This document shows, piece by piece, positions 11,949-39,753 of a stretch of DNA of 64,000 nt (the first letter of the stretch is position 1; each line of letters starts with the position of its first letter). The stretch is from the IMG/VR virus record IMGVR_UViG_3300037140_000076, positions 48,375 through 112,374 of that record; one strand, given 5' to 3'. The position numbers and the translations under genes are program-made. This DNA is from a virus. The notes beneath the pieces are model-generated. The model was not told where the DNA came from. It did not search any database and saw nothing but the letters and a program-made list of their open reading frames with translations.

Positions 11949-11973
11949 AATACTTATTTCTAAGGTTTGTCAG

Positions 11974-12756: not shown

Positions 12757-12806
12757 TGCCATAAACACGTTATTCGGAACACAAAGATAAGTAACTTTTT
12801 TGAAAC

Positions 12807-24301: not shown

Positions 24302-26474
24302 ATGCTCAATAAGAACCTTTTAAATTTTACCCTGGTTGTTTTCTCATATGGTGCTATCTTATTGACAGTCTTATACTTAAAAGATAAATCGAAGAAATGA
24401 AAAAAATCCTGATTGATTTCACAACTGTTTTAAAAAAGAAAGATAGATTTACAGATCATGCCGGGGTTGAACATAAGATAAAAGAAGTAACGTATGCCCC
24501 CTCCAACGGGACGGTATATATAGAGACGACAGAAGGGAAGATGATTAACCTTACTAAAGCGTTGATTAACAAAGATATATTATGTCTACTCAAGAAATGA
24601 TTCGTTGGATACCTTTAGAAGAATATAAAATAATGCAACAATCTGAAGAGGAATGGAAAAAGATGAATTATAGAATATTCATGAGTACTTTTTGGGGTAT
24701 GGAAATACCTAAACCATTAATAAATAAAGAGTTATGATTAACACCCTTCTTTGTTTTTTAGGTATTCATAGATGGCATTCCGTTAGAAATGGACCTAAAA
24801 TCCCTTTTTCAAGATGTAGATATATTTTTTGTACTCGTTGCGGAAAACAAAAATAACACACTGATAAATAAAGACTTATGAACTTTGCAAAACTCTTCTC
24901 TATTGATGACGATACCCAGGTGCTTGTTAGGCTCGAAGATGGGTTTGATGAAACCACCGGAGAAGAAATTACAAACGTTACTCAAACAACTGAGTACAAC
25001 GGAGTTACAATGGAATGTTCTAAAGGATTCCTGGAAGTAAAAGACGCTGAAGAATATTTTAAAAAGTTCTCCCTGGCTCTTGCCATTACTTTTCATGAGG
25101 ATGCCCGGAAGGTTATTTTCGATATGGTGGAGGAAGGCTGATTTGGAATTGTGAAGGTTTTGTTATAATTTTATACCTATGCCTGAATTAACCTATGCCT
25201 TTCAAATCCTCACTGCAACTGATCTGATGGTCCTTCAAGACGATATGAACGATCTTGGTATATGTGGATACACAGCGGTTGGGGGAGTGACCTATTCCTT
25301 CTTTGATCCAAACAGCCCTAGTGGATTTACCTACGTCCAGGTTATGAAATTAATAATAAAGAACTTTTAACTTTTTGTTAACTTTAGATTGATTATATTC
25401 GCATTATGAAAGAACATAGATCAAAACAAATGGGACCTGGAGGCGGTGGATGGCTTTCAGACCTGGAAAGAGATCAACCTATAAAATCAGGAGCAACACC
25501 CCTTACATTACCAGGCACCACCTCAACAAGGTTTGAAGTTTTCTTTCAATTCAATGATGATGCACCGGTTAGGTTTGCAGAAACAAGAACAGGACTTAGG
25601 ATAGACCTAACTGAAGATGGTCAAGACGTTGAATGGAGGGATGGGGATAAGAGATTTAGAATTTTTTTAAAAAAGAAGACATGACAAAAATAAAACCAGA
25701 CGTCACCGAAACTAACCCATTCGTTATCTATCCCCCCGATTCCAATGTAATTTTAAATCTTCCAAAACCAAATTCTGTATCTAATTTTGAAAAGGATTTG
25801 CTTGAAAAGTTTAACGAATATGATGGTCCTAAAAGCACCCGTGGTAAAGTACCCGATGAAATTCAACCTCTTAAAGATAAAGAAAATATTTTTCAAGATA
25901 CCCATGCTATAAACAATTCAATGGTTTTGCAAAAATTAGGATTTGAAGAAAGATCAGCTACCCAATGGTATCACCCAGTTCTTGGAGATGATATGGAACA
26001 TAACTGGCTTCATTTTGATACTCAATATGATGATACTGAATCTATTGTACCAAAGATTTATAAAACAGGATTTGTACAAGGTCAGAAAAATATTCGGATG
26101 GGTATTAAAAAGGTACTCGATATTTAAAAACAACAATTACATGGCAGCTAAAAAAGAAACTAGAAAATCATTTTGTATTACCGCTAAGATTATTATCACA
26201 ACAAGTATTGAAGTTTATGCTAATACGTTTACTGAAGCTGTGGATTTATCAAGAGGTTTAGGAGTAGATAATTTTGTTGAAGTCATTGGTGATCACATTG
26301 ATAGTGAATTCGGCATAGAAGGTATTTCTGCTTTTCCGAATACCGCAACACTTTAATTATGTACGAAGACTTATTAAAGGACCCTCCCGACACTGAGGAA
26401 GATATTCCAGATATACTTCAACCCCCAGGCCCCGCTGTTCCGGTGGCTGGATTATGTTTTGCTGAAAGATTATA
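24302..26474 (+). CDS. cluster of small hypothetical genes (24302-24400, 24397-24600, 24878-25141, 25179-25370, 25406-25684, 25681-26127, ~26141-26356)
   Basis: ORF track plus manual translation; several have their own Bacteroidota-type promoters. Confidence 0.5.
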
Positions 26475-26543
26475 ACAAAACTCAGTGATAATTATCATTG
26501 GATTTAGTGATAAAAATAAAATTATAACAAAATTTTGTTATAA
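26470..26543. promoter_or_regulatory. three copies of the 22-bp palindromic operator TTAT(A/C)ACAAAATTTTGT(T/G)ATAA
   Basis: Perfect palindrome at 26522-26543 just upstream of -33 TTTG; degenerate copies at 26470 and 26492. Confidence 0.75.
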
Positions 26544-26545
26544 AA

Positions 26546-26577
26546 TTTGGTAGATTAAAAAATTCTTCTTAGGTTTG
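26546..26577 (+). promoter_or_regulatory. Bacteroidota sigma-A promoter (-33 TTTG, -7 TAGGTTTG)
   Basis: Matches TTTG ... TAnnTTTG. Confidence 0.7.
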
Positions 26578-26595
26578 TAGTCTAAATGATTTTTT

Positions 26596-26742
26596 ATGGT
26601 AGTAGGTATAATAATTGGTTTCGTTGCTGGCTTTGTAATTGGAGCACTTGTGTTCAGAAACAATACTACAAAAGCTAATGCCGTAATAGCAACTGTTCAG
26701 GCAGATACTGCAACCGTAGTAGCTGACGCTAAAAAAGTTTAA
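26596..26742 (+). CDS. small single-pass membrane protein (48 aa)
   Basis: MVVGIIIGFVAGFVIGALVFRNN... Confidence 0.6.
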   Translation: MVVGIIIGFVAGFVIGALVFRNNTTKANAVIATVQADTATVVADAKKV

Positions 26743-26773
26743 TCAAATGGGTGGAGACGCTTAAAATATTACA

Positions 26774-26851
26774 ATGCAACAATTTACAATGATAGTGGAT
26801 AATAGAATTAATGCCGGAGGCGAAAATCGTCTTTCAGGGATTCTATTGTAA
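26774..26851 (+). CDS. leader peptide 1 of tRNA array 1 (MQQFTMIVDNRINAGGENRLSGILL)
   Basis: A-rich TIR; codons 6-17 match all ten downstream tRNAs; overlaps the antiterminator strand. Confidence 0.8.
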   Translation: MQQFTMIVDNRINAGGENRLSGILL

Positions 26852-26876
26852 CATCATTAATAATATGTTAAACCTT

Positions 26877-26913
26877 TAGAACCCTGGATAATAAATCCAG
26901 GGTTTTTTATTTT
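26877..26913 (+). terminator. attenuator terminator 1
   Basis: AACCCTGGAT/ATCCAGGGTT stem plus T-run, directly before tRNA-Val. Confidence 0.85.
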
Positions 26914-26985
26914 AGACAATTAGCTCATCGGGAGAGCGGAGCCTTTACACGGCTTGCGTAGAGGGTTCAATTCCTTCATTGTCTA
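26914..26985 (+). tRNA. tRNA-Val(TAC)
   Basis: Cloverleaf; GAGCC-TT-TAC-AC-GGCTT. Confidence 0.88.
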
Positions 26986-27041
26986 CATAATGACCGTTAT
27001 AACGGACATTCTCCCCAGGAAATGACCGCTATAACAAACAT

Positions 27042-27112
27042 TTTCCTCTCGTTCAATGGAAGGACGACTGCCTTCTAAGCAGTGAATAAGTGTTCGACTC
27101 ACTTGGGGAAAA
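27042..27112 (+). tRNA. tRNA-Arg(TCT)
   Basis: ACTGC-CT-TCT-AA-GCAGT. Confidence 0.88.
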
Positions 27113-27117
27113 CATAA

Positions 27118-27191
27118 GGCTTGTTAGCTCAGTGGCCCAGAGCGGGACTTTGTTAAAGTTCGGGTCCTTGGTTCGAATCCAAGACGAGCCT
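27118..27191 (+). tRNA. tRNA-Asn(GTT)
   Basis: GGACT-TT-GTT-AA-AGTTC. Confidence 0.9.
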
Positions 27192-27238
27192 CAAAATTAA
27201 TTTGGATATGTCACAAACTTTATGTATATTGTGTCATA

Positions 27239-27640
27239 ATGAAAATTTGTACACGATGTAAAGATAAAAAAGAACTATCTGAGTTCTATAAAAGTCCAGG
27301 CAGTAAGGATGGTTATCGCATTTATTGTAAAACATGTTATAGTAAGTTACGAAAGAGGACATATAATTTTCAAAAAGCAAAGAAATTATTTTTAAAAAGT
27401 AAATACAAAATAACTTTAGAAGAATTGGAAGTTTTATTTTTAAAACAAAAGAAAAAATGTGCTATTTGTAATGAACCAAATGAAGAAGTGTCTACTAGAA
27501 GTGGGTTACATATAGACCATGATCATGTTACAGGAAAAGTCAGAGGTTTACTTTGTAAAAACTGTAATCAATTGATAGGCAATGCTAAAGATAATATAAA
27601 TATTTTAGAAAATAGTATAAAATATTTATTATGTTCTTAA
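27239..27640 (+). CDS. endonuclease VII-type HNH nuclease
   Basis: CAIC...LHIDHDHVTGKVRGLLCKNCN. Confidence 0.88.
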   Translation: MKICTRCKDKKELSEFYKSPGSKDGYRIYCKTCYSKLRKRTYNFQKAKKLFLKSKYKITLEELEVLFLKQKKKCAICNEPNEEVSTRSGLHIDHDHVTGKVRGLLCKNCNQLIGNAKDNINILENSIKYLLCS

Positions 27641-28437
27641 CATTCACAGAAGAAGGGCATTCGTATGAGTCAATTCCAGCCGTTTCCTGGACTTCTGTGA
27701 CTAAATTAATAGAAAGCTACTGCAATCCTTTTGATGAGGAGGATCAAGCTCTGAGGAGTTCACAGAATATGAATTCAAAATGGTTTGGGATGGACCCAGT
27801 GGAGATTATCAAACTCTGGAAGGCTGAAAACCTTCGTTCCACTGATGCCGGAACCTGGGTCCACAACAAATGGGAAAAAAATGTTAGCTCTTTAAAGCAC
27901 AAAGAGTGGGAAGGAAAGAAATTAAAAGTTTTTCCTGGAAAATGGGAAGGAGAAACTAAAATTGCACCGGCCCAGGAACTTGAAGAAGGGGTTTACCCTG
28001 AACATATTATATATAATGAAAATCTTCAGGTGTGTGGACAGGCTGATATTGTTAATGTTAGGGATGGTTTTGTAGATGTAATTGATTATAAGACTAGTAA
28101 GGAGATTGAGGACCACTCTTATGGATTCAAGTATGGAAATGCGAGTATGATGTTGGAACCGGTGAACCATTTAGAGGATTGCAACCTTTCTCATTATGTT
28201 CTTCAGCTTGGTATCTATATGAGGCTCATCCTGTTAAAGAATCCGGCTCTGAAACCTGGTAAACTGATCCTCATTCATGTAAAAATGGATATTAATGAGC
28301 TTGATCAATATGGATTTCCTATCCTAAAAAGGACAAAAGAAAACGGATATAAAATTAAAAGAACAAAAAATTATAATATAAAATACATTGAGAATGAAGT
28401 TCGTAGTGTATTAAAAGATCATTATTTAAAATTGTAG
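27631..28437 (+). CDS. PD-(D/E)XK exonuclease
   Basis: SVTKLI, GTWVH, PEH...CGQAD...IDYKT, YVLQLGIY. Confidence 0.8.
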   Translation: MFLTFTEEGHSYESIPAVSWTSVTKLIESYCNPFDEEDQALRSSQNMNSKWFGMDPVEIIKLWKAENLRSTDAGTWVHNKWEKNVSSLKHKEWEGKKLKVFPGKWEGETKIAPAQELEEGVYPEHIIYNENLQVCGQADIVNVRDGFVDVIDYKTSKEIEDHSYGFKYGNASMMLEPVNHLEDCNLSHYVLQLGIYMRLILLKNPALKPGKLILIHVKMDINELDQYGFPILKRTKENGYKIKRTKNYNIKYIENEVRSVLKDHYLKL

Positions 28438-28582
28438 GGTGGCGAAATTGGCAGACGCAACCGCTTGTCTCGCGGTCGTGGATAAGGAAATAGATAGTAG
28501 ATAGACGGTTGACCAGCAATGAATTAACTTCTTTTGTCTCCTGTTGAATCCCCACTTAATGGTTCGAATCCATTTTCTACAG
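28433..28582 (+). ncRNA. tRNA-like RNA with ~81-nt variable region (loop centre GTC)
   Basis: Acceptor TGTAGGG/TTCTACA, Leu-type D loop, ACCGC-TTGTCTC-GCGGT, T arm AATGG-TTCGAAT-CCATT. Confidence 0.7.
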
Positions 28583-28702
28583 CAATTGATCAGTATGTTG
28601 CAGATAGAATCTGATCTGGCCCTACGCACTGCAAAGCGTTGAGGGAGCGCGTCCGGGATAAGTAGACCTGGTAAGACTACGCTAGGAAAAAGTCTTTTAT
28701 AT

Positions 28703-28777
28703 TGCGGGATAGAGTAAATGGATAACTCGAAGGTCTCATAAGCCTTGTCTATGTCGGATCGTACCCGGCTCCCGCAA
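28703..28777 (+). tRNA. tRNA-Met(CAT)
   Basis: TGCGGGA/TCCCGCA; AAGGT-CT-CAT-AA-GCCTT. Confidence 0.85.
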
Positions 28778-28778
28778 C

Positions 28779-28886
28779 GGTGGTGTCTTGAACGTAGTCC
28801 TGGGAAACAACAAGGGAAGTACAACTAACGGGTTACTGAAAGGGCTTTGTAGTTCAAGAATTAAACAGGTAAAGCTGGCCGCTACT
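28779..28886 (+). ncRNA. unknown ~108-nt structured RNA
   Basis: GGTGGTG/CGCTACT closing stem; TCTTGAAC/GTTCAAGA helix; fills the gap between two tRNAs. Confidence 0.5.
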
Positions 28887-28888
28887 TT

Positions 28889-28962
28889 GCGCCATACGCA
28901 TTCCGGTAGTGTGCCTGGCTTCCAACCAGGATGAGTCGGTTCGATTCCGACATGACGCACCA
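28889..28962 (+). tRNA. tRNA-Gly(TCC)
   Basis: CCTGG-CT-TCC-AA-CCAGG; CCA encoded. Confidence 0.88.
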
Positions 28963-29042
28963 GGACAAGACGGAGGTTCGAATCCTCCCGGCTATGTATC
29001 CGTAATTGGGTGACGCAGTAGTTTAGTGGTTAGAATATGTCC
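28963..29042 (+). ncRNA. circularly permuted tRNA-like (YrlA-type) RNA
   Basis: GGACA/TGTCC closing stem; T arm GGAGG-TTCGAAT-CCTCC comes before the D arm TAGTTTAGTGGTTAGAATA. Confidence 0.7.
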
Positions 29043-29045
29043 AAT

Positions 29046-29117
29046 GCTCCTTTCGTCTACTGGCTAGGACATCACTCTTTCCAAGTGATTAAGACAGATC
29101 GAAACTGTCAGGGAGTA
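29046..29117 (+). tRNA. tRNA-Glu(TTC)
   Basis: TCACT-CT-TTC-CA-AGTGA. Confidence 0.85.
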
Positions 29118-29123
29118 CAATAT

Positions 29124-29198
29124 GGTACATTAGGGGAGTCCGGAGTCCCTGCCTCACTGTCTATGAGGAGATCATCGGTTCAAATCCGATATGTACTG
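29124..29198 (+). tRNA. tRNA-Asp(GTC)
   Basis: CCTCA-CT-GTC-TA-TGAGG. Confidence 0.88.
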
Positions 29199-29255
29199 CA
29201 AGATGGAACGTTTAGTACGTCTGAACACGAAATAATGGTTCCCCATCTTTTCTAT

Positions 29256-29330
29256 ATTCGGATAACTCAGTCTGGTCAGAGGGCGACTCTTATAAGGTCG
29301 CAGTCAGTGGTTCAAATCCACTTCCGAATA
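29256..29330 (+). tRNA. tRNA-Ile(TAT)
   Basis: CGACT-CT-TAT-AA-GGTCG. Confidence 0.88.
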
Positions 29331-29402
29331 CTGGTTCGTATAAAGGCACGAATTGTTCGAAAGATTCGTGTAAATACGTAATTTGCAAATTGCAAATTAT
29401 AC

Positions 29403-29476
29403 TGACCTATGGCGCAGCTTGGTAGCGCAGCACTCTGATAAGGTGAAGGTCCCTGGTTCAAATCCAGGTGGGTCAA
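29403..29476 (+). tRNA. tRNA-Ile(GAT)
   Basis: CACT-CT-GAT-AA-GGTG. Confidence 0.9.
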
Positions 29477-29519
29477 CTCTGTTCATATTTTTTCTCTGTT
29501 CACGAAAAGTGAACAACCT

Positions 29520-29590
29520 GGGCCAGATCCCGAAGGCAGGGCATCTCGCTTGCACCGAGAATGAAGCGGGTTCGATTCCCCATGTGTCCA
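29520..29590 (+). tRNA. tRNA-Ala(TGC), divergent
   Basis: TCTCG-CT-TGC-AC-CGAGA; G3:U70 present; mismatches in acceptor and T stems. Confidence 0.7.
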
Positions 29591-29631
29591 CTTTTTTCCC
29601 AAATTTGGAAATGTGAAAAATTTTCACTATA

Positions 29632-30159
29632 TTGAATTCTTCACATCCAAATTTAAATAATATGTTAAAGTTCATCCTAGACAACCCAGAGAAGACACTT
29701 TTCGGTAAGATTAGAAACATTGGTTTTGTATTTGCACTGGAATTAATTTACTTAAGTATCATTGTTTTTTTATTGAAACAACTAGATCCCTTTGATCTAT
29801 ATACTCTTATGCATCAATATAGTTTACCACATGTTATAGACGCTAATGCTATTGGGATATTTTTCTTTGCTTGTATTTGGGCACCCCTATGGGAAGAAGC
29901 GGCTTTCAGGTATGCTCCTATAACGATTGCCAAGAACTTTGGACCTCAATTTTTGTTCCCGGTTATAATAATTAGTAGTGTTTTATTTGGTTGGGGTCAT
30001 GGATCTGGACCTGTTAGTCTTCTTATTCAGGGAGTTGGGGGATTCTTGTTTTCCCTGCTTTATATTAAAAATGGTTTTAGTTATAAATCTTCAGTAACTG
30101 CCCACTTCCTTTGGAACCTTTCTCTTATGTTCCTCCTTCCTGTTTTAATAGCAAATTAA
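29632..30159 (+). CDS. CPBP/Abi (CAAX-II) intramembrane protease
   Basis: EEAAFR, FGWGH, H..WN; multiple TM helices; likely start at 29662. Confidence 0.8.
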   Translation: MNSSHPNLNNMLKFILDNPEKTLFGKIRNIGFVFALELIYLSIIVFLLKQLDPFDLYTLMHQYSLPHVIDANAIGIFFFACIWAPLWEEAAFRYAPITIAKNFGPQFLFPVIIISSVLFGWGHGSGPVSLLIQGVGGFLFSLLYIKNGFSYKSSVTAHFLWNLSLMFLLPVLIAN

Positions 30160-30210
30160 ATTTTGTAATATCAATTCTTTTAAGTACTTTAGGGTCATAA
30201 TTTAGTTATT

Positions 30211-30990
30211 ATGGCCCTAATTGCTATGGCGGTATACTCAACTGAGGAGAACGGAAAAAATGAATATCTGGATAAAACTCTTCAATCATTGGAAGAGACT
30301 GTAGATTTTACTAAACATCGTCTAATTCTATCTGTTAATGCTTATACAGCAGAAACTCTTTTGATATTCAGAAGATTTAAAGGCATGTTTGAATTGATTT
30401 TCAATAAAGAAAATCTTGGAACCGCTGAAGCAATTAACCTTGCTTGGAAAGATCAATGGCCGGGAGAAAATCTCATTAAGATGGATGATGATGTTGTCAT
30501 AAATGTTAATGGATGGGTTGATCGCATGGAAGAAGCTATTCAGAGAGATCCAACGATAGGTCAATGTGGTCTAAAAAGAAGAGATTGTACAGAAACTCCC
30601 TGGAATCCCGACCCCTTTTATAAATCAAAACTTGAAATGCTTCCTCACTCCCCCGGTGAGAAATGGATTGTAGTAGAAGAAGTATCTCACGTTATGGGGA
30701 CTTGTGTCATGCACTCTGCTGCACTACTTCACAAAGTAGGATACCTTTATCAACCAAAACTTTATGGATTTGATGATTCGTTTATGAGTCTTCGGTCCCG
30801 AATTGCGGGATTTAGAAATGTATTTTTGCCTGGTATAGATATTGAGCATATTGATAGAGGAGATACCGGGTTTCAAAAATGGAAAGAGAAACATGCTGGA
30901 GAGTGTTGGCAAGAATATATGCAAGTGGTAAGAGATTATACATCAGGTAAAAAAAGCGTTTATTATAATCCATTCGAAAATGATAAATGA
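30211..30990 (+). CDS. GT2-family glycosyltransferase
   Basis: ENLGTAEAIN, KMDDD, YGFDDSFMSLR. Confidence 0.8.
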   Translation: MALIAMAVYSTEENGKNEYLDKTLQSLEETVDFTKHRLILSVNAYTAETLLIFRRFKGMFELIFNKENLGTAEAINLAWKDQWPGENLIKMDDDVVINVNGWVDRMEEAIQRDPTIGQCGLKRRDCTETPWNPDPFYKSKLEMLPHSPGEKWIVVEEVSHVMGTCVMHSAALLHKVGYLYQPKLYGFDDSFMSLRSRIAGFRNVFLPGIDIEHIDRGDTGFQKWKEKHAGECWQEYMQVVRDYTSGKKSVYYNPFENDK

Positions 30991-31684
30991 TACAATAGTT
31001 CTTACTGCAATATATCATGAGTTTTGGGGAACAGAACAGTTTAGAAAATCTGTTGAGAGAGTAGGTCTGGATGTTTATAATGTATTTCCTGAAAACACCC
31101 CATATAGAGGAAACGGTTTTATTTATCAATACTTTTACAAAGCCTTTTTAGATCTTAAAGATAAATATAAAACAGTTATTTATTCGGATGGAGCAGATAC
31201 AGTTTTTCAAAAAGCATTTGTACCACCAACTGATAGAATAATTTATTCTGTTGAAAAAGCAATATGGCCTCCTGCCGAACGCTTCCCACATCTTAAAGTT
31301 CTTTATGATAACTATTATAACAAACACTGGCGTAGAAATGATTGGCCTTGGAAATATTTGAATGGGGGAAACTGGTGTGGTCCCATTCATCTATTAATTG
31401 AATGGTATGAACGATACGGATTGAAAGATTTGACAGGAGATATAAATGGTCAGAGAGAGCAAGCCGAAGCTTTTATGAAAGCAGATGCAGATGGTTTTCC
31501 AATTAAGTTCGATCATAATTGCGAATATTTTCAGACAACAGGTTTTGAAAATCAAGGAGATTTCAGTTTAGCGGAAGATGGAAAATCAATTATAAATAAT
31601 TTAACAGGGACGATTCCTTGCGTTCTTCATGGGAACGGGCGAACTCCGATGAATGCCATATATAATAGATATAACGTACAATAA
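30980..31684 (+). CDS. PLOD/LH3-type glycosyltransferase
   Basis: YSDGADT, YSVEKAIWP, KYLNGGNWCG, EYFQ, LHGNG. Confidence 0.75.
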   Translation: MINDTIVLTAIYHEFWGTEQFRKSVERVGLDVYNVFPENTPYRGNGFIYQYFYKAFLDLKDKYKTVIYSDGADTVFQKAFVPPTDRIIYSVEKAIWPPAERFPHLKVLYDNYYNKHWRRNDWPWKYLNGGNWCGPIHLLIEWYERYGLKDLTGDINGQREQAEAFMKADADGFPIKFDHNCEYFQTTGFENQGDFSLAEDGKSIINNLTGTIPCVLHGNGRTPMNAIYNRYNVQ

Positions 31685-31685
31685 A

Positions 31686-32741
31686 ATGACGAACAAAGAA
31701 AAAGCAAAACGACAAAGAGACCGAAGAAAAACCTATTCATTGTCAAAAAGAAAAAAAATAGCAAAGCAGGTGAAGGCGTATGCCGAAGCAAATAAAGAAA
31801 GACTTTCTTTTTTAAAAGCAGAAATGTATAGAATAAATAGAGAGTATATTTTACACTTCAAAGCAACACATCCTTGTGTAATTTGTGGACAGACTGATCC
31901 TTTCGTTTTAGACTTTGACCATTTAGATCCTTCTAAAAAGGAAGCAACGGTTGCAAATATGTTAGGTAGAACAGCTTCTCTAGAAAAAATAAAAAAAGAG
32001 ATAGCCAAATGCCAGATATTGTGTGCTAATTGTCATAGAAGAAAACATTTTTATGAAAAGAACAAATACAATTTTAAACAAAATATTGTTTTAATCGGAG
32101 GCGGTAATCATGTTCAGTACTGTATTGATATAATTAAAAAACAAAACAAATACAATATTGTCGGTATCATTGATTCAGTTAAAGATATTGGAGAAATTGT
32201 ATACGATTATCCTGTCATAGGAAGACAAAAAAATATTGTTGAACTTTCAAAACAATATGGGTTTGAAAGTGGTATAATTACTGTTGGAGATAATTGGGCA
32301 AGATATAAAATATATGGAGATATTATTGAGGCTTATCCATCATTTATGTTTGTAAACGCAATTCATCCTTCAGTATTAATAGGCAATAATGTAAAGATAG
32401 GTAAAGGAGTAATAGCAATGGCGGGTGTAATATTTAATCCTGGAGCAAATATTGGAGATTTTACTTTCTTTGCAACAGGTGCGCAAGTAGAACACGATTG
32501 TATAATAGAACATTTTGCAAGTGTATCAGCGGGGTCTATTCTTGGTGGTCATGTTCATATAAAAGAGTTTGCTGCTATTACTCTAGGGGTAACAATAATT
32601 GATCGTCTTACTATTGGATGGAATACAGTAATTGGATCAGGGTCTCTTGTAACAAAAGATATAGATGATAATGTGTTGGCATATGGAAGCCCTGCGAAAG
32701 TAATAAGAATAAGACAACAAGGAGAAAGATTTTTAAAATAA
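31686..32741 (+). CDS. HNH nuclease fused in-frame to a NeuD/PglD-like sugar acetyltransferase
   Basis: N-terminal CVICG..LDFDH..CANCHRRK; C-terminal IVLIGGGNH, hexapeptide repeats, AYGSPAKVIR. Confidence 0.8.
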   Translation: MTNKEKAKRQRDRRKTYSLSKRKKIAKQVKAYAEANKERLSFLKAEMYRINREYILHFKATHPCVICGQTDPFVLDFDHLDPSKKEATVANMLGRTASLEKIKKEIAKCQILCANCHRRKHFYEKNKYNFKQNIVLIGGGNHVQYCIDIIKKQNKYNIVGIIDSVKDIGEIVYDYPVIGRQKNIVELSKQYGFESGIITVGDNWARYKIYGDIIEAYPSFMFVNAIHPSVLIGNNVKIGKGVIAMAGVIFNPGANIGDFTFFATGAQVEHDCIIEHFASVSAGSILGGHVHIKEFAAITLGVTIIDRLTIGWNTVIGSGSLVTKDIDDNVLAYGSPAKVIRIRQQGERFLK

Positions 32742-32746
32742 TAAAT

Positions 32747-33538
32747 ATGTCACCATCCCACGCAATAGAATTAAACCATAGAGGTTATACTATTATACCA
32801 AATTTGATACCGCCTATTATTGTTGATGGATTGAGATATGCGTTGAACTTTTCATTTGATAAACACAGACAGATACAAATTGATAATAATAATGATATAG
32901 TTACGGAAGGCGTTGCTCTACATGTTTTATTAGATAATAGAAGATTTATTGAATTCTTACAATATCTTATGTTTGATATTAAGTTGTATTCCTTTCTGGA
33001 AGAAAATTATTTTAAATCAAAATTCATATTGAATTCGATGAGTGGCTTGAATAACTTACCAAACCAACCAAACTTTTCGTCCATAGTTCACCGTGATTTG
33101 AGATTTTATACTGGCGAAATACCAGTCATGATAAATGCCCTTGTGATGGTTGACGAATTCACTGAAGATAATGGTCCCACCTTGTTATTACCATATTCTC
33201 ATATTGATTTCGAAGAAAAACCAACCAATGAATACTTTCGAAGAAGTTCAGTGAAAGCTCTCGGTGAAGCCGGTAGTGTTTTATTATTTAATGCAAACGT
33301 TTGGCACGCATCTAGCTTAAATACTTCTCGTAACGGAAGAAGAGCATTACCAATAACATTCACTAAATCACTTATAAAGCAGTTATTGGATTATCCCAGG
33401 GCTTTAGGATACGATAGAATGGAAAGCTTTAGCGAACCAATGCAACAGCTTCTTGGGTATCATGCCCGTGTACCAGCCAACTTAGATGAATGGTATCAAC
33501 CTTTTGATAAACGATTTTATAAAAAAAACCAAGATTAA
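32747..33538 (+). CDS. PhyH-family 2OG-Fe(II) dioxygenase
   Basis: VHRD, DEFTEDNGPT..LPYSH, GSVLLF...WH..S.N. Confidence 0.85.
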   Translation: MSPSHAIELNHRGYTIIPNLIPPIIVDGLRYALNFSFDKHRQIQIDNNNDIVTEGVALHVLLDNRRFIEFLQYLMFDIKLYSFLEENYFKSKFILNSMSGLNNLPNQPNFSSIVHRDLRFYTGEIPVMINALVMVDEFTEDNGPTLLLPYSHIDFEEKPTNEYFRRSSVKALGEAGSVLLFNANVWHASSLNTSRNGRRALPITFTKSLIKQLLDYPRALGYDRMESFSEPMQQLLGYHARVPANLDEWYQPFDKRFYKKNQD

Positions 33539-33547
33539 AATAAACCA

Positions 33548-33794
33548 TATGCCAATATTAATTTCTCGAAAACAGAATATAGTTCGATCATATACTTTTG
33601 AACTTAATCCAATAGAAACTCAAAAATTTGAAGATGAGATTTTGAGTAATTTTTGGGATGCAACCAAAATTCCTGAAGACGAAAGAGCAGAGTTCAAAGT
33701 AACGTATACTATAGATTTTTATAAAAAACCAGTAGAAGAAGAACCCCAACCCCAGGATGGGTCACATATTATACTAGGATTACCTTCTATCTAA
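33548..33794 (+). CDS. hypothetical protein
   Basis: ORF track 33486-33794; likely start MPIL. Confidence 0.5.
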
Positions 33795-33796
33795 TA

Positions 33797-33828
33797 TTTG
33801 GTAATTTCAATTATTTTACATATATTTG
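33797..33828 (+). promoter_or_regulatory. Bacteroidota promoter of array 2 (-33 TTTG, -7 TATATTTG), 4 nt before the leader ATG
   Basis: Consensus match. Confidence 0.75.
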
Positions 33829-33832
33829 TTTT

Positions 33833-33901
33833 ATGAAACATATCAATTCATATTATTCACTGAGTCTACTCTTATCGTCTTACGATACGGACCTGGGATA
33901 A
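33833..33901 (+). CDS. leader peptide 2 of tRNA array 2 (MKHINSYYSLSLLLSSYDTDLG)
   Basis: 12 consecutive Ser/Tyr/Leu codons upstream of Leu/Ser/Tyr tRNAs. Confidence 0.85.
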   Translation: MKHINSYYSLSLLLSSYDTDLG

Positions 33902-33936
33902 TATTGAATTAACCGAACTGATTCGGAAAAGTTATT

Positions 33937-33970
33937 ACCCTGGGATTTTTATCCTGGGGTTTTTTGTTTT
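33937..33970 (+). terminator. attenuator terminator 2
   Basis: ACCCTGGGAT/ATCCTGGGGT plus T-run abutting tRNA-Leu. Confidence 0.85.
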
Positions 33971-34044
33971 AGGGATGTGCTGCAATTGGTAGATAGCTAC
34001 GCCTCAAAAGCGCATGTGTGTGGGTTCGAATCCCTCCTTCCCTA
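33971..34044 (+). tRNA. tRNA-Leu(CAA), short variable arm
   Basis: Loop CT-CAA-AA; TTCGAAT T loop. Confidence 0.78.
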
Positions 34045-34073
34045 CTAAAAGCGTTACTAACGCTTTTCAGTAT

Positions 34074-34153
34074 ACCTTCGTGACTTATACGAAATGGCAC
34101 AGTTACCGGTCTTAGAAACCGGGTCCTTGTGGGTTCGACTCCCACCGAAGGTA
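34074..34153 (+). tRNA. tRNA-Leu(TAG), enlarged D loop, short variable arm
   Basis: CCGGT-CT-TAG-AA-ACCGG. Confidence 0.82.
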
Positions 34154-34190
34154 CAATGTTTCCCTTATTAATGAGGTAAACAATTTATAA

Positions 34191-34270
34191 CCCTCTGTGG
34201 CTTATAGAAATAGGTACACTTAACCGACTTAAAATCGGAGCTTGTCATGGTTCGAATCCATGCAGGGGGA
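34191..34270 (+). tRNA. tRNA-Leu(TAA), enlarged D loop, short variable arm
   Basis: CCGA-CT-TAA-AA-TCGG. Confidence 0.8.
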
Positions 34271-34275
34271 CATAC

Positions 34276-34362
34276 GGAAGGCCCCAGTTGACTGAGGTAC
34301 ACGGTCCTGAACACCGCTAGGAGGCTAATACCCTTGTAAGAGTTGGACTCTCTTGCTTTCCG
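34276..34362 (+). tRNA. tRNA-Ser(TGA)
   Basis: CGGT-CC-TGA-AC-ACCG; long V arm; G73. Confidence 0.8.
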
Positions 34363-34480
34363 CTTTATATCTTTTAACATATAAAATCAGTAATATATTA
34401 CCGATTATATCTAATAACGTATAATAAGGTAGAATATTTTGCAACAATCGGCAATTTATTACCGATTTTGCCGAAAGTTT

Positions 34481-34564
34481 GGAAAGTTAATTAGCAAGAG
34501 CTAACCCTCCCCGCTAAGGAGTGGGACCGGGAAACTGGTTGTGGTTCGTGTCCACAACTTTCCG
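34481..34564 (+). tRNA. tRNA-Ser(GCT)
   Basis: CTCC-CC-GCT-AA-GGAG; long V arm; G73. Confidence 0.82.
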
Positions 34565-34612
34565 CAAGAGGAAACATTTGGAAGTTTCCTCTTTATTTCG
34601 TATGTTTGTAAA

Positions 34613-35059
34613 ATGAAAAAGATATGTTCAAAATGCAATATTGAAAAAGAAGTACAAGATTTCAATAAACGCACAAACAGTAAAGACGGATATGATCCAA
34701 GATGTAGAACTTGTACAAAAGAACGAGATGTTTTAAGATATACTAAAAATCCCAAACTTTTTAAAGAAAGGGCAAAAGTTAAAAACACTTTTATAAGAGA
34801 TAGAAACAGACAATTTTTAATTGAATATTTAATTGATAAATCATGTATTGATTGTGGAGAAACCGATGCTGTTGTATTGGAGTTCGATCATATAGAACCT
34901 TCAACAAAAATTGATTGTATTTCAGAAATGATTCCACGATCAAGTATTGAAAATATTAAAACTGAATTAAATAAATGTGAAATAAGATGTGCAAATTGTC
35001 ATAGAAGAAAAACAGCTAAACAATTTGGCTGGAAAAGAAAACACCTGGAATTATGTTAA
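34613..35059 (+). CDS. HNH endonuclease
   Basis: KICSKC..CRTC; CIDCGE...LEFDH...CANCHRRKT; start MKKI 4 nt after TATGTTTG. Confidence 0.85.
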   Translation: MKKICSKCNIEKEVQDFNKRTNSKDGYDPRCRTCTKERDVLRYTKNPKLFKERAKVKNTFIRDRNRQFLIEYLIDKSCIDCGETDAVVLEFDHIEPSTKIDCISEMIPRSSIENIKTELNKCEIRCANCHRRKTAKQFGWKRKHLELC

Positions 35060-35083
35060 GATTAGATAAAACTTTACTCTTAT

Positions 35084-35154
35084 TGATTGAATACCAGGGC
35101 AGTAGGCACTGTCTGTAAAACAGAGGCACGTAGGTTCGAGTCCTACTCAGTCAA
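35084..35154 (+). tRNA. tRNA-Tyr(GTA), short variable arm
   Basis: CTGT-CT-GTA-AA-ACAG; GTAGG-TTCGAGT-CCTAC. Confidence 0.78.
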
Positions 35155-35158
35155 CAAA

Positions 35159-35213
35159 TTATAACTGAATTTTGTTATAAATTTGGAAATTTGAAAAAGT
35201 ATTATTAAGTTTG
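35159..35213 (+). promoter_or_regulatory. 22-bp palindromic operator plus promoter of array 3 (-33 TTTG, -7 TAAGTTTG)
   Basis: TTATAACTGAATTTTGTTATAA followed by ATTTGG ... TAAGTTTG. Confidence 0.72.
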
Positions 35214-35224
35214 CAGTTAAGATT

Positions 35225-35317
35225 ATGAAACAGACTATCAACACGCGATTTTTTTGGCATCAACCGACCCCTCAAGGTCCAAGGGCTAAAGTTATGCGTG
35301 ATACAGATATAGGTTAA
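35225..35317 (+). CDS. leader peptide 3 of tRNA array 3 (MKQTINTRFFWHQPTPQGPRAKVMRDTDIG)
   Basis: Codons 7-19 TRFFWHQPTPQGP cover all seven amino acids of the downstream tRNAs. Confidence 0.85.
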   Translation: MKQTINTRFFWHQPTPQGPRAKVMRDTDIG

Positions 35318-35345
35318 ATAATCTCTTTTCTGCTTGCAACTTTTC

Positions 35346-35381
35346 AACCCTTGATTTTTCTAAACCGAGGGTTTTTTATTT
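35346..35381 (+). terminator. attenuator terminator 3
   Basis: AACCCTTGATTT/AAACCGAGGGTT plus T-run abutting tRNA-Pro. Confidence 0.82.
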
Positions 35382-35457
35382 CTAGTAATGGAGGAGTCCG
35401 GCCATCCTCGCGTGCCCTGGAAGCATGAGAACCCAGGTTCAAATCCTGGTTACTAGA
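35382..35457 (+). tRNA. tRNA-Pro(TGG)
   Basis: CGTGC-CC-TGG-AA-GCATG. Confidence 0.85.
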
Positions 35458-35462
35458 CAAAT

Positions 35463-35534
35463 TCCTCTTAAGCTTTAATGGTGAAGCTCCAGTTTTGTAA
35501 ACTGGTGAATGGGGATCGTTACCTCAAAGAGGAT
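35463..35534 (+). tRNA. tRNA-Thr(TGT)
   Basis: CCAGT-TT-TGT-AA-ACTGG. Confidence 0.85.
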
Positions 35535-35618
35535 CGAAGCCGGTTACCAAAATGTAAAAAAGCCGCCAGAACGTGTCTGGTTACTTGTTAAGACAAGTTG
35601 TAAAAAAGTTTGGGTTAT

Positions 35619-35693
35619 GTGTCTTGGGCAGGTCTGGTGACATTGCATCCGTTTGAAGAACGGACTAACAAGGTTCGATTCCTTGAGGATACG
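35619..35693 (+). tRNA. tRNA-Phe(GAA)
   Basis: TCCGT-TT-GAA-GA-ACGGA. Confidence 0.82.
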
Positions 35694-35698
35694 CTTAT

Positions 35699-35770
35699 TC
35701 CTGGATCGTATAACGTGTAGTACAGCCGTCTCTGACACGGTTAGCAATTGTTCGACTCAGTTTCCGGGAA
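35699..35770 (+). tRNA. tRNA-Gln(CTG)
   Basis: GCCGT-CT-CTG-AC-ACGGT. Confidence 0.85.
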
Positions 35771-35775
35771 CTTAA

Positions 35776-35846
35776 ACCCCTTTAGCATAAAGGTAATGCT
35801 GGTGGCCTTGACCCACCAGAAGTTCGGTCGGTACGAGCAGGGGGTT
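35776..35846 (+). tRNA. tRNA-Gln(TTG)
   Basis: GGTGG-CC-TTG-AC-CCACC; atypical T loop. Confidence 0.78.
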
Positions 35847-35847
35847 C

Positions 35848-35918
35848 TGTGAATCTAGTTCAATGGTAGAACGGCTGGCTGTGAACCAGGCAATTAGGGT
35901 TCGATCCCCGGTTTCACA
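35848..35918 (+). tRNA. tRNA-His(GTG)
   Basis: CTGG-CT-GTG-AA-CCAG. Confidence 0.78.
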
Positions 35919-35964
35919 CAACGCATGAATTTTTAATAAAAATTCATGCAAAATATTAACATAA

Positions 35965-36036
35965 CCTCCTTTCGTTCAACGAATAGGACCTCTGGCAACG
36001 AACCAGAAAATAAAGGTTTGATTCCTTTAGGGAGGT
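35965..36036 (+). tRNA. tRNA-Arg(ACG)
   Basis: TCTGG-CA-ACG-AA-CCAGA. Confidence 0.8.
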
Positions 36037-36041
36037 CAATT

Positions 36042-36110
36042 ACGTGCCAGGCTAAGGCAGCCAAGCAAACTCCAAATCTGTAGGAGATAGTTCGATTCTA
36101 TCGGTGCGTG
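36042..36110 (+). tRNA. tRNA-Trp(CCA)
   Basis: Loop CT-CCA-AA; GATAG-TTCGATT-CTATC; G73. Confidence 0.8.
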
Positions 36111-36591
36111 CAAATTATAACAAAAAGCAATTATAATTACTTTTTGTGATAATATTCACACAAAATTTTGTGATAAATGTTGGAAGTGTCAAAAGTATTG
36201 TTTTACTTTGCACCCAACTTTCACCAGTAAAGGACACGCCACCACGAAAAAACAATGATATGAAGTGGCGCAACTACGTCTTGGCTTTTTTTGGGGGAAC
36301 CTACGGAGGGGGGCCTCACCCCTCTCATATTATTGATTTATAATACGTTAAATGATTACCGGGTAATTTACTGGGCCTGGTAAAGCTTATAATTTGGTTA
36401 TGTGCTTTGAATTACATATATTTACAGAGGTAAAAAGCACAAAAAATATAAAAAGAGATTCAAGGGGATCATTTAAGATATTACCATCACAAAAATTCCT
36501 ATCTGGTTATAATCAAAAAACGTAATCTGCGTCCATTTAAAACGTTTAAGCAGATGGCAGTGAATTAGGAAACACTGTTGCCCGGTGGTAT

Positions 36592-36620
36592 AAAAGATGC
36601 AATTTATTGCATCTTTTTTT
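36592..36620 (+). terminator. intrinsic terminator
   Basis: AAAAGATGCAAT/ATTGCATCTTTT plus T-run. Confidence 0.7.
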
Positions 36621-36674
36621 ATTTAACATAGTCTTAACTTGGTTTTATAATAAAAAACAGTTACATTTGCAAGT

Positions 36675-37022
36675 ATGAGAGCGTTGAAGATAGAAAAAAA
36701 GACTGATTCGAAAACTCAACAGATAAAGCTTGTATTATCAATCATTTGTCTATTGAATAATATTACTCTCTCAGAAACAGATTATATATCTCTTGCTTTT
36801 TTTATTCAGTATAAAATGAGCCACAAAACCGATGATTTGATAATCAAGAGTGGGGTGGTCAAGAACATGGACGTTTTAAGAAACGTTAAAACCAGGTTAT
36901 GTAAGAAAGGATTTTTAAAAAGAGATCCTAAAGAATACAAAACCTATGATTTGAACATGAGTGCGGGGGAGTTTAATTGGGAAGACAATGATATTCGATT
37001 AATTATAAAACTCAATAATTGA
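36675..37022 (+). CDS. hypothetical (possible winged-helix) protein
   Basis: 115-aa ORF with promoter TACATTTG. Confidence 0.55.
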   Translation: MRALKIEKKTDSKTQQIKLVLSIICLLNNITLSETDYISLAFFIQYKMSHKTDDLIIKSGVVKNMDVLRNVKTRLCKKGFLKRDPKEYKTYDLNMSAGEFNWEDNDIRLIIKLNN

Positions 37023-37372
37023 AAAATATTGACTATATAATTTTGAAGACCTCCAGGGACATGGATATTCCTAAAGAAAAGGTTAAGATAATAGTGGATA
37101 CCTATTGGGATGGAGTGTATAAAAAACTTTTAAATTTAGATTCTACAACTGTTTTTATAAGGAATGTGGGGCTGATAACAATAAGTAAATTTAAATTAAG
37201 AAAGTTTATTTATAAATTTATTGATAAAATAAGATTTTTAAATAAAGGAGATAATTATTCTGAACAACAAAAACAAAAACTCAATCCTCTTTATATTAAA
37301 AAATTGAGGAAAGCTCTTTCTCAAAGAAACATTATTGCTAAAGACTACGCTAAAAAATTTGGAAACACATGA
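37019..37372 (+). CDS. HU/IHF-like protein
   Basis: IILKTSRDMDIPKEKVKIIVDTYW...TVFIRNVGLI, HU-fold pattern common in crAss-like phages. Confidence 0.55.
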   Translation: MKNIDYIILKTSRDMDIPKEKVKIIVDTYWDGVYKKLLNLDSTTVFIRNVGLITISKFKLRKFIYKFIDKIRFLNKGDNYSEQQKQKLNPLYIKKLRKALSQRNIIAKDYAKKFGNT

Positions 37373-39218
37373 GTTTAAGAAAAACTTTTGGTGAGTATTT
37401 GGACATGGTGAAGAATGGTTTTAAAAACAAAGATAAGATCATTGAAGCAATGCAGGTCTCTGCTATGATAAAGAACGGGAAGATTGGAAATGGTTTGGAG
37501 GTTACTAATGAGGCTGTTGCTGAAATACTTAAAAGGAAAGATATTTGTGCTGAGTGTCCTTTCAATAGTAGAAACACAAATAAAGAAACTTATAAATCTA
37601 ATTTACCCTGGGAGCATTGTACTCTTTGTAAATGCAGGATAGGATATGATGATAGCAAAGAATATTGTTTATCTTGTGTATGTGGAGCCGAAGCCTGGAA
37701 TGAAATGAATCCTGATATGGAACCGATGGAAGTGAAATGGACAGCATTTAAAAACTAAAAATAAATATTATGTGCGTAGTTAGTATGGTAGGAGATCATT
37801 ACTCCGATAAATTTAAGGATGATTGGTATAAAAGGTTTGTACCTTGGACTCCTCCTTCTACTTCCCCTTATACGCCAAATCCTTTGAGTATACCAACATT
37901 TATTCCAATGGCAACAAAGGAAGAGTTTGATGTTTTAAAGAAAGAAGTTGAAGAAATGAAAAAACTTTTAATTAGAGCAAAGATATACGATGAAAAAAAC
38001 AATGAACCAGATTGCGAAATAGATGCCAAGATAGAGCTTCTTAAAAAGTTTGCAGAGTTGGTTGGTATAGACTTAAGTGACATTTTTAAAAAAACAACAT
38101 GAAAAAAAGCACAAAGATTATTTTATTTGTAATATTTCTTGTAAGTATCCTTTTTTATAGTATCTTTGTATCAGCACAAAACCCAATAAAGAAGTTTCAT
38201 CCTGCGACTTATGAATCTGATAGTGTTGTTTATGTTCGTGGTGATCAAACTATTTCTGTAAATGATAGCATTGATGTAATTTTTACAGATACTGCAAACT
38301 TAATAAGAATTGTTAATATAACTAAAAAAACAATTCTTAATGTTGAAATAGTACACGCGGTACGTTCAGAAGTTATTGAATCATATAATGAGAAAGGAGA
38401 AAAAGAAAATTTAACTGTAGGTTGGTTTTATTGTTTAGTAAACGATCAAGAGCAAATGGTATTTACAACAATATCTCTTCAAGATGGAGAGATCGCGGGG
38501 GTTGGTATAGGCACCGAAACATATTTTACAGTCATGTCATTAAAAAGAAAGAAACAATACGATAAAAAACTTAAATAAACAGTATGACCACAGAAAGAAC
38601 GCTTCCAGGTAAGCCTGATAAGCAAAGAATGCAGACCACACAGCAGATTTTTCATAATCTTCTGGAGATCGTGGAACTTTATCCTCAGTATTCTGTGGCC
38701 CAACATGTGGCTGCAATCAGTCGAAGAAAAAGTTCAACCGGTAAAGATTTATTTCATTGGTCTGATGATGAACTTCTTAAAAAGATCGAAGCTCACAAGA
38801 CAGAACTCGAAGGAGAAGACATTATGAATTATGATGATGGTGAAATTGATTAAAATATTTTATGACCATAAAGAAAACGTTTTATATAGACATTTATAGT
38901 TGTAATGTGCATGTAACGGCGGCTGATGATGTAAGACGATCAATAAATTATTATTTAAAAAAACACGGAGAAAAAATCATAGAGTATGATGTAGAAGGAC
39001 TTTTTTTCGTTCCTATAGATCAAGTTTCTGATTATTATTTATTTTTTAATCTTAAAGGTTTAGATGTAAATACTTTGAATCATGAAATATCTCATCTTAT
39101 TGAAGAAATTTTAATACATCGTCATATTAAAGCATCAGGAGAACAGAGAGCGTACTTACACGGATCTACATGTGAAAGAATATATAATTTCTTTAAAAAG
39201 AAAAAATGTATTAAATAA
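37369..39218 (+). CDS. hypothetical genes (37369-37758 Cys-rich; 37770-38102; 38099-38578 signal peptide; 38584-38853; 38862-39218 HExxH zincin-like)
   Basis: ORF track; motifs CAECPF..C..C.C and LNHEISH. Confidence 0.55.
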
Positions 39219-39219
39219 C

Positions 39220-39295
39220 GGCCAGGTACCCAATGCTGGACGCGGGGTTAGTCTGCAAAACTTACTTAACACCAGTTCGATTCTGGTTCTGGTCT
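39220..39295 (+). tRNA. tRNA-Cys(GCA), stand-alone
   Basis: GGCCAGG/TCTGGTC-T; loop CT-GCA-AA; U73. Confidence 0.82.
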
Positions 39296-39307
39296 CAAAA
39301 AACAATT

Positions 39308-39751: not shown

Positions 39752-39753
39752 TT

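Follow-up and report, generated by a model that had tools for sequence, protein, structure and literature searches.

Putative leader-peptide attenuators ahead of three tRNA gene arrays in an uncultured phage

In enterobacteria, several amino-acid operons are controlled by leader-peptide attenuators, among them thr (threonine and isoleucine), ilvGMEDA (isoleucine, leucine and valine), trp, his, leu and pheA; in Escherichia coli the pheST genes for phenylalanyl-tRNA synthetase also have an attenuator, with pheM as its leader. Here we analyse three cassettes that lie, each ahead of an array of transfer RNA (tRNA) genes, at 26546-26912, 33797-33968 and 35182-35379 of a 64,000-nucleotide stretch of viral DNA (IMG/VR record IMGVR_UViG_3300037140_000076, positions 48,375 to 112,374; this whole stretch is referred to as the window). 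The order is the same each time: promoter, short open reading frame (ORF), intrinsic terminator, tRNA. Judged on sequence comparison and RNA modelling, each cassette is probably a multivalent leader-peptide transcription attenuator that stands before tRNA genes and feeds back on tRNA supply.

Among published tRNA arrays that are under regulation, the nearest is the tRNA L-array (trn operon) of Anabaena PCC 7120, which is silent until translation is impaired and is repressed by TrcR (PMC8421152, PMC10272220). The reason for the presence of tRNA genes in phages is a matter of decades of debate (PMC10264068), and published work shows that phage tRNAs are able to stand in for host tRNAs that defence systems have destroyed (PMC10264068, PMC11464382). 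An earlier note on this DNA, made from its letters alone, had proposed trp/his-type attenuation of the arrays and knew of no previous description of such a system; full-text literature searches, with subscription-only papers outside their coverage, found no published leader peptide or attenuator before tRNA genes either. Nor did literature searches find a published account of phage tRNA gene regulation, and attenuation of tRNA genes in the style of the trp operon is apparently unpublished.

Leader codons and the tRNA content of the arrays

The window makes up the right-hand 64 kb of an uncultured virus record of 112 kb (35% G+C). Its DNA occurs in sequencing runs of peat and permafrost DNA metagenomes, and no RNA run was listed among them. 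ARAGORN called 19 tRNA genes in the stretch under study, recovering those named in the earlier note, and relaxed ARAGORN runs added more, these calls being checked by homology to confident tRNAs of related phages (Table 1). Since endonuclease ORFs interrupt arrays 1 and 2, we use 'array' for all tRNAs up to the next cassette.

As the earlier note had observed, each array begins right after a strong terminator, preceded by a leader ORF of 22-30 codons. The terminator hairpins have predicted energies of -15.0, -14.4 and -9.9 kcal/mol, and their T tracts end 8-9 nucleotides (nt) ahead of the first tRNA, a gap in which no promoter motif was found. The promoters were located with the motif TTTG, 17-21 nt, TAnnTTTG, which has eight matches in the window against 2.6 expected and, in its strict form, 14 in the whole 112-kb genome. 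The ATG codons of leaders 2 and 3 lie 4 and 11 nt past the -7 box, from which the leader 2 mRNA is predicted to be leaderless or nearly so.

Within each leader, a run of codons lists the tRNAs of the array behind it. The run of leader 1 names every identity of array 1, and the best 12-residue windows of leaders 1, 2 and 3 matched their own arrays at 12, 12 and 11 of 12 positions. The match was confined to the ATG frame, with 10.9 of 12 compared with about 5 in the remaining five frames. When 402 small ATG ORFs from both strands of the window were ranked, leader 2 was the single top scorer for its array (12, the next ORF reaching 9), as was leader 3 for its own (11, the next reaching 10). The correspondence extends to isoacceptors: the Arg codon is AGA in leader 1, whose array carries Arg-UCU, and CGA in leader 3, whose array carries Arg-ACG; leader 1 has both ATA and ATT, for Ile-UAU and Ile-GAU; and the run of leader 2 uses both Ser boxes (TCN and AGY) and both Leu boxes (CTN and TTR). 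Cys codons are absent from all three leaders, and tRNA-Cys stands alone outside the arrays. Apart from the use of both boxes, these isoacceptor and Cys features had been stated in the earlier note, and they held on inspection. The leaders moreover foretold tRNA genes that the default ARAGORN run had missed, namely Ala, Trp, Ser and Leu.

Relatives were assembled through a 700-residue terminase-like protein (39754-41853) that has hundreds of homologues: 80 loci were retrieved from IMG/VR, of which the ones that carry tRNA arrays went into the analysis, and the cultured phages Lbo-JY46 of Leptolyngbya and phi4:1 of Cellulophaga were added. Cassettes of the same kind are present in all of these. 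The terminase is 41% identical to that of Lbo-JY46, 28.5% to that of phi4:1 and merely 21-31% to crAss-like terminases, and the placement in Crassvirales implied by the earlier note was not upheld. A megablast search with 26500-36400 gave no match among cultured phages. The main statistics cover 23 units from 10 related phage sequences. The leader ORF is kept in all 23 and in three units of phi4:1, starting with ATG (GTG in one case) 4-27 nt downstream of the -7 box, and in 13 of the 23 leaders the first two residues are Met-Lys. Hairpins with T tracts stand 4-13 nt before the first detected tRNA in 22 of the 23 units; in the remaining one (L011 unit 1) a terminator was found by another scan.

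Leader content followed array content throughout this set. In total, 137 of 140 array identities were present in the unit's own leader, and the best 12-residue window scored 10.9 against its own array and 3.4 against the remaining arrays in that genome (Fisher odds ratio 45, p 4e-28). This p value overstates independence because the units are homologous, so that the rearrangements are the informative evidence, and here the leaders tracked their arrays through six different ways of dividing up the tRNA genes. Array 3 of L016 and L020 includes Asp and Asn, and leader 3 gains Asn and Asp codons and has no Arg in its run; Arg-ACG belongs to array 1 in these two, and leader 1 is without Asp or Asn and has AGA as well as CGC. 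Array 1 of L011 and of Lbo-JY46 begins with Lys and Cys, and both residues occur in the leader. L088 has two re-partitioned arrays and two leaders that match the new split, including Trp, Phe and Thr, and in L015 the array is reduced to Pro, Gln and His and the run is made of His, Pro and Gln codons. A further three-way split in phi4:1 is matched at 11, 12 and 10 of 12 positions. The Arg codon family within the run fits the Arg isoacceptor of the array in every unit, all nine leaders of class II arrays use both Ser and both Leu codon boxes, and Ser positions alternate between TCN and AGY boxes among homologous leaders, as would be expected from selection on decoding. The leaders again foretold tRNAs missed by default ARAGORN (Lys and Gln in L020, Phe and Leu-CAA in L010); in unit C of phi4:1, the predicted tRNA-Cys was not found, only Ser-UGA and one odd tRNA-like gene being present. 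Comparison with relatives supports the proposal of the earlier note. The layout occurs in two cultured phages, Lbo-JY46 (L089, PP438436.1, 1839-6790) and phi4:1 (NC_021788.1, 87065-90926), and so can be tested now. The Bacteroidota-type promoters of Lbo-JY46 are odd beside its recorded cyanobacterial host.

Alternative RNA pairings, the proposed switch and its competitors

The 3' part of the leader ORF can pair with the 5' arm of the terminator, as had been noted for the window, and with a few bases that precede the arm; this pairing is a property of most units. With the arm extended by 8 nt, a narrower definition having understated the pairing, it was stronger than in dinucleotide shuffles (mean z -3.0; p<0.05 in 18/22 units; combined p 2e-20). 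The strand also co-varies with the arm: a unit's own upstream region was the best partner among 22 for 13 of the 22 arms (permutation p 5e-5). From the end of the strand to the end of the stop codon downstream, the median distance is about 8 nt. In each of the three window units, the minimum-energy fold contains a protector helix in which the sensor run is paired with the antiterminator strand, the z-scores of the leader folds being -3.5, -1.8 and -1.4 for units 1-3.

Ribosome positions were modelled as a 30-nt footprint, which on codon 10 gave an 11-bp antiterminator in each window unit (Table 1). Equilibrium folding with the whole terminator present did not flip units 1 and 2, and truncated transcripts were then modelled. 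In these, a footprint on a run codon left the 5' arm sequestered at a probability of 0.7-0.9; without a ribosome the arm was still paired, at a mean probability of 0.62. In nearly all units it is at the 3' end of the matched run that the arm changes from sequestered to free, and matched codons are enriched among the ribosome positions that sequester the arm (odds ratio 2.8, p 1e-8). Folded without a ribosome, 21 of 22 units form the terminator at a probability of at least 0.78. Even at equilibrium, a stall abolishes the terminator in about 10 units, in which it persists when there is no ribosome or when the ribosome is at the stop codon. In the modelled window units, a ribosome at the stop codon masks the strand of unit 1, which ends 2 nt before the end of that codon, and the strand of unit 2, which ends 3 nt after it.

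These results suggest the following scheme. Transcription would start at the Bacteroidota-type promoter and a ribosome would translate the short leader at once. With all aminoacyl-tRNAs for the 11-13 codon run plentiful, it would reach the 3' part of the ORF, where it would mask the antiterminator strand or let that strand return to the protector helix; the terminator would then form and RNA polymerase would halt 8-9 nt before the first tRNA. If any one of the listed tRNAs were scarce, the ribosome would stall in the run, and the antiterminator strand would be free to take the 5' arm of the terminator, allowing polymerase to transcribe into the array. More array tRNA would mean faster leader translation and renewed termination, a negative feedback whose loop closes because the tRNAs named in each run are exactly those of the array behind it. 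The parts, their order, the match and co-variation of codons with arrays, and the alternative pairings are all seen in silico and, together with the stall modelling, support the trp/his-type layout proposed in the earlier note. From them we infer that the leaders are translated, that transcription ends at the hairpins and that the outcome responds to tRNA supply.

Several observations weigh against this scheme. In units 1 and 2 the terminator wins at equilibrium for every ribosome position, so that the switch must be kinetic; in the E. coli trp leader, too, the terminator is favoured at equilibrium by published energies. The antiterminator of unit 2 is no better than shuffles (p 0.10-0.23) and ranks 18/22 in the cross test. 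In unit 3 the strand ends 23 nt before the stop codon, and a ribosome there leaves it unmasked, so that the protector helix would have to form again for transcription to terminate. With one to three codons per tRNA, the stall signal is weaker than in hisL or pheL with their tandem runs, and under strict wobble rules run codons such as GCC, GGC, ACT, ACC, CCT, CTC and TCT need four-way U34 reading. The endonuclease ORFs interrupt arrays 1 and 2 by 1.2 kb and 0.45 kb, and the distal tRNAs (Met to Ala in array 1, Tyr in array 2) may not depend on the attenuator alone. Finally, L012 contains at 5696-5866 an orphan cassette of promoter, leader 3 and terminator with no tRNA genes behind it, which would be explained most simply by a recent deletion. 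This orphan leader carries the run Arg-Phe-Trp-His-Gln-Thr-Pro, and a second hairpin and a new promoter come next.

The dominance of the terminators of units 1 and 2 and the weak pairing in unit 2 would also suit an explanation in which the leaders do sense decoding speed and the output is Rho access, RNase cleavage or precursor stability, the hairpins serving for processing or insulation. We consider this improbable: T-tract hairpins stand just before the first tRNA in unit after unit, and the explanation has no role for a strand that is complementary to the 5' arm and co-varies with it.

More improbable again is the idea that the codon run is read as RNA, with tRNA anticodons binding it directly and stabilising the antiterminator in the manner of a T-box with many specifiers. 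A match at the level of codon and anticodon is expected under direct pairing as well. However, an Rfam scan of 25500-40500 listed no T-box or other riboswitch family at E<=1, and every unit retains a start codon and an uninterrupted frame, with the stop codon at a set distance ahead of the terminator. The restriction of the signal to one frame, the recurrent Met-Lys start and the switching of Ser codons between boxes also point to translation. An Rfam match to the greA leader at 26789-26913 (36.7 bits against a cut-off of 60) was taken as a generic likeness to a hairpin plus terminator and rejected.

A slightly weaker contender is that the terminators merely end upstream units, the ORFs being small proteins or chance frames and the arrays being transcribed from elsewhere. 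Leader 1 does follow a 48-codon ORF, for whose gene terminator 1 could serve, and there is a promoter-like motif inside array 2 (34577-34608). Leaders 2 and 3, however, start so close behind their own promoter boxes that there is nothing else to terminate, the gap between terminator and tRNA is devoid of promoter motifs, and the tracking of composition across six partitions of the tRNA set would be left unexplained. That AT-rich, low-complexity ORFs happen to resemble the array sets can be dismissed: leader 1 does tie at 12/12 with three other small ORFs of the window, because its set is large (10 amino acids), but chance is refuted by the Fisher test over 23 units, the frame-specific match, the ranking of 402 ORFs and the concordant leader changes when tRNAs move between arrays.

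Transcription attenuation by the leader peptides therefore remains the reading that we prefer. The sensor so described is blind to the difference between tRNA loss, poor charging and a general slowdown at the run codons; shortage is nevertheless the likely natural signal, because extra tRNA helps only against tRNA shortage. Possible causes of shortage are host tRNA cleavage, decay after host shut-off, and a mismatch between the AT-rich codons of the phage and the host pool. The idea that host tRNAs cleaved or lost in the course of infection are the trigger in nature is speculative. We would give rather less than even credence to a more specific version, in which the rosters of the leaders act together as a multiplexed sensor of the host tRNA pool, respond to tRNA-targeting defence (by anticodon nucleases such as those of the PrrC, RloC, VapC, colicin D/E5 or PARIS kind) or to tRNA loss brought on by infection, and switch on the matching replacement block within seconds.

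Further features of the locus

The features of the three cassettes and arrays are collected in Table 1.

Table 1. Positions of cassette elements and tRNA genes in the window. Regulatory elements and RNA pairings are predictions.
Feature	Position	Strand	Basis	Remarks
Promoter, cassette 1	26546-26577	+	motif scan	TTTG-N-TAnnTTTG, Bacteroidota type
Membrane-type ORF	26596-26742	+		48 codons; between promoter and leader 1, predicted to be co-transcribed
Leader ORF 1	26774-26851	+		25 codons
Sensor run 1	26789-26827	+		leader 1 codons 6-18, Met-Ile-Val-Asp-Asn-Arg-Ile-Asn-Ala-Gly-Gly-Glu-Asn
Protector helix 1	strand 1 with 26778-26813		constrained folds	no ribosome
Antiterminator strand 1	26832-26849	+	constrained folds	pairs with 26877-26887 (11 bp) upon in-run stall; footprint on codon 10, 26834-26845/26877-26887; -15.8 kcal/mol, z -3.0, p 0.010
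Terminator 1	26878-26912	+		12-bp hairpin 26878-26906 and T tract
Array 1, proximal: tRNA Val-UAC, Arg-UCU, Asn-GUU	26914-27192	+	ARAGORN
Array 1, distal: tRNA Met, Gly-UCC, Glu, Asp, Ile-UAU, Ile-GAU	28703-29477	+	ARAGORN
tRNA Ala-UGC, array 1 distal	29521-29591	+	relaxed ARAGORN and homology	distal part in total 28703-29591
Promoter, cassette 2	33797-33828	+	motif scan
Leader ORF 2	33833-33901	+		22 codons
Sensor run 2	33848-33883	+		leader 2 codons 6-17; Ser, Tyr, Leu only
Protector helix 2	33845-33867 with 33889-33910		constrained folds
Antiterminator strand 2	33891-33904	+	constrained folds	spans stop codon; pairs with 33933-33944 (11 bp); footprint on codon 10, 33892-33903/33933-33944; -11.2 kcal/mol, p 0.10, weakest of three
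Terminator 2	33937-33968	+		10-bp hairpin 33937-33960 and T tract
tRNA Leu-CAA, first gene of array 2	start 33971	+	ARAGORN	class II block of array 2, 33971-34565
tRNA Leu-UAG, array 2	34083-34154	+	relaxed ARAGORN and homology
tRNA Leu-UAA, array 2	34191-34271	+	relaxed ARAGORN and homology
Ser-UGA-like gene, array 2	34276-34363	+	relaxed ARAGORN and homology	weaker
tRNA Ser-GCU, array 2	34481-34565	+	relaxed ARAGORN and homology
tRNA Tyr-GUA, last of array 2	35084-35155	+	ARAGORN	behind inserted HNH-type ORF
Promoter, cassette 3	35182-35213	+	motif scan
Leader ORF 3	35225-35317	+		30 codons
Sensor run 3	35243-35275	+		leader 3 codons 7-17, Thr-Arg-Phe-Phe-Trp-His-Gln-Pro-Thr-Pro-Gln
Protector helices 3	35220-35261 with 35283-35324		constrained folds
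Antiterminator strand 3	35274-35298	+	constrained folds	pairs with 35335-35358; footprint on codon 10, 35274-35285/35348-35358 (11 bp); -13.0 kcal/mol, p 0.017
Terminator 3	35346-35379	+		hairpin 35346-35373 and T tract
Array 3: tRNA Pro, Thr, Phe, Gln-CUG, Gln-UUG, His, Arg-ACG	35382-36037	+	ARAGORN
tRNA Trp-CCA, array 3	36042-36111	+	relaxed ARAGORN and homology	whole array 35382-36111
tRNA-Cys, solitary	39220		ARAGORN

The tRNA set of the window (12687-39296) has a single U34 tRNA for each of the four-codon boxes of Val, Ala, Thr, Pro, Gly, Ser and Leu, together with Arg-ACG, and forms a minimal, near-complete decoding set that is without Lys alone, no tRNA-Lys having been found across the 112-kb genome. 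The class II tRNAs (Leu, Ser and Tyr) are grouped in a single array in most relatives. The Rfam tRNA model and default ARAGORN overlook most class II and some other tRNAs of this phage. Relaxed ARAGORN calls at 27782, 31869, 34820 and 36257 lie inside ORFs and were dropped as false by a neighbour rule and homology; a relaxed call of 'Ser-CGA' at 34191-34271 was rejected, homology pointing to Leu-UAA. In a tRNA-like gene at 28437-28583, about 75 nt are inserted between the anticodon and T arms, and Rfam gave no match to an intron or other family; the gene is conserved in L010 with compensatory changes in the anticodon stem, and the nearest comparable gene is a 96-nt 'Asp-GUC' call in L016.

Elsewhere in the window ARAGORN called a transfer-messenger RNA (tmRNA) and a second tRNA-Thr. 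The tmRNA (11971-12331, minus strand; Rfam RF00023) scores 48.9 bits, barely over the cut-off of 47, and in the proposed reading this ribosome-rescue RNA is carried by a phage that senses stalled ribosomes. Within 12687-12813 (minus strand), the tRNA-Thr-UGU begins 26 nt after a promoter of the same class (12813-12782), with no leader or terminator ahead of it.

Array 1 is split by an Endonuclease VII-like ORF (27239-27640) and a PD-(D/E)XK ORF (27631-28437), and array 2 by an HNH-like ORF (34613-35059) that has its own promoter motif (34577-34608) and a hairpin at 34566-34593. The arrays of relatives are contiguous at these points or are broken elsewhere, and the endonuclease ORFs look like recent homing insertions. 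Small membrane-type ORFs similar to that ahead of leader 1 lie between promoter and leader in some other cassettes and adjoin the leader in L014 (5540-5653) and L015 (185-313), where the stop codon overlaps the ATG of the leader, an arrangement that suggests translational coupling into the leader.

A 22-bp palindrome (TTATAAC, 8 nt, GT(T/G)ATAA) occurs in the 112-kb genome only at 26470, 26522, 35159, 41851, 41873, 58523 and 58616, touching the -33 box of the promoters of units 1 and 3. It may be the operator for a DNA-binding regulator and provide a second, protein-level layer of control. At 36170-36343 a fourth promoter-like element of the same class is followed by an ORF of 27-28 codons (36258-36343) that contains a G+C-rich hairpin (36306-36326), with no T tract and no tRNA behind.

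Significance and comparison with known systems

If the proposed reading is true, the phage gauges how fast each codon is decoded and makes tRNAs when they are needed, which would bear on both the codon-compensation and the counter-defence hypotheses, and textbook attenuation would be extended to non-coding products and to a sensor of 7-13 amino acids. Should the multiplexed-sensor version also be true, then with the tmRNA and the near-complete U34-based set it would amount to a self-regulated translation supply largely independent of the host. The cassettes would be compact natural parts that report the availability of chosen tRNAs, and the leaders, having foretold tRNA genes missed by a standard tool, are an aid to annotation.

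Like the proposed cassettes, the Anabaena L-array is a supernumerary tRNA array that is silent and is switched on when translation is impaired; it differs in being controlled by a ribbon-helix-helix repressor at the promoter, with no leader peptide and no codon roster, and in being a single cellular or plasmid-borne operon of 23-26 tRNAs. PMC10264068 and PMC11464382 give a rationale for tRNAs on demand; going by their abstracts, they concern the function of phage tRNAs and their resistance to nucleases, not the regulation of the genes. T-box riboswitches resemble the cassettes in that antitermination reads tRNA status through codon-like specifiers, but a T-box binds one uncharged tRNA without a ribosome and has a Stem I and a conserved T-box sequence, whereas the cassettes, in which the Rfam scan detected no T-box, have conserved ORFs.

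In pheST, as in the proposed switch, leader-peptide attenuation adjusts one part of the translation machinery to the amount of charged tRNA available; there, however, the target is a synthetase gene, a single amino acid is sensed and the genome is cellular. Closest in mechanism are the thr and ilvGMEDA attenuators, and the sequence features of the attenuator family, namely the short ORF, sensor codons, intrinsic terminator and antiterminator pairing, are present in the cassettes. Shared with them are a short leader, predicted here to be translated, with sensor codons; antiterminator and terminator as predicted alternative pairings, with a candidate protector helix; a terminator directly ahead of the regulated genes; and the sensing of several amino acids by one leader. 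The phage cassettes differ in that the products are tRNAs and the feedback would act on tRNA supply, where in thr and ilvGMEDA the products are enzymes and the feedback acts on amino-acid supply; in that a leader names as many as 13 amino acids, most of them once or twice, where the others have tandem runs of one to three; and in belonging to a phage of a Bacteroidota-type host, with leader mRNAs that are predicted to be nearly leaderless.

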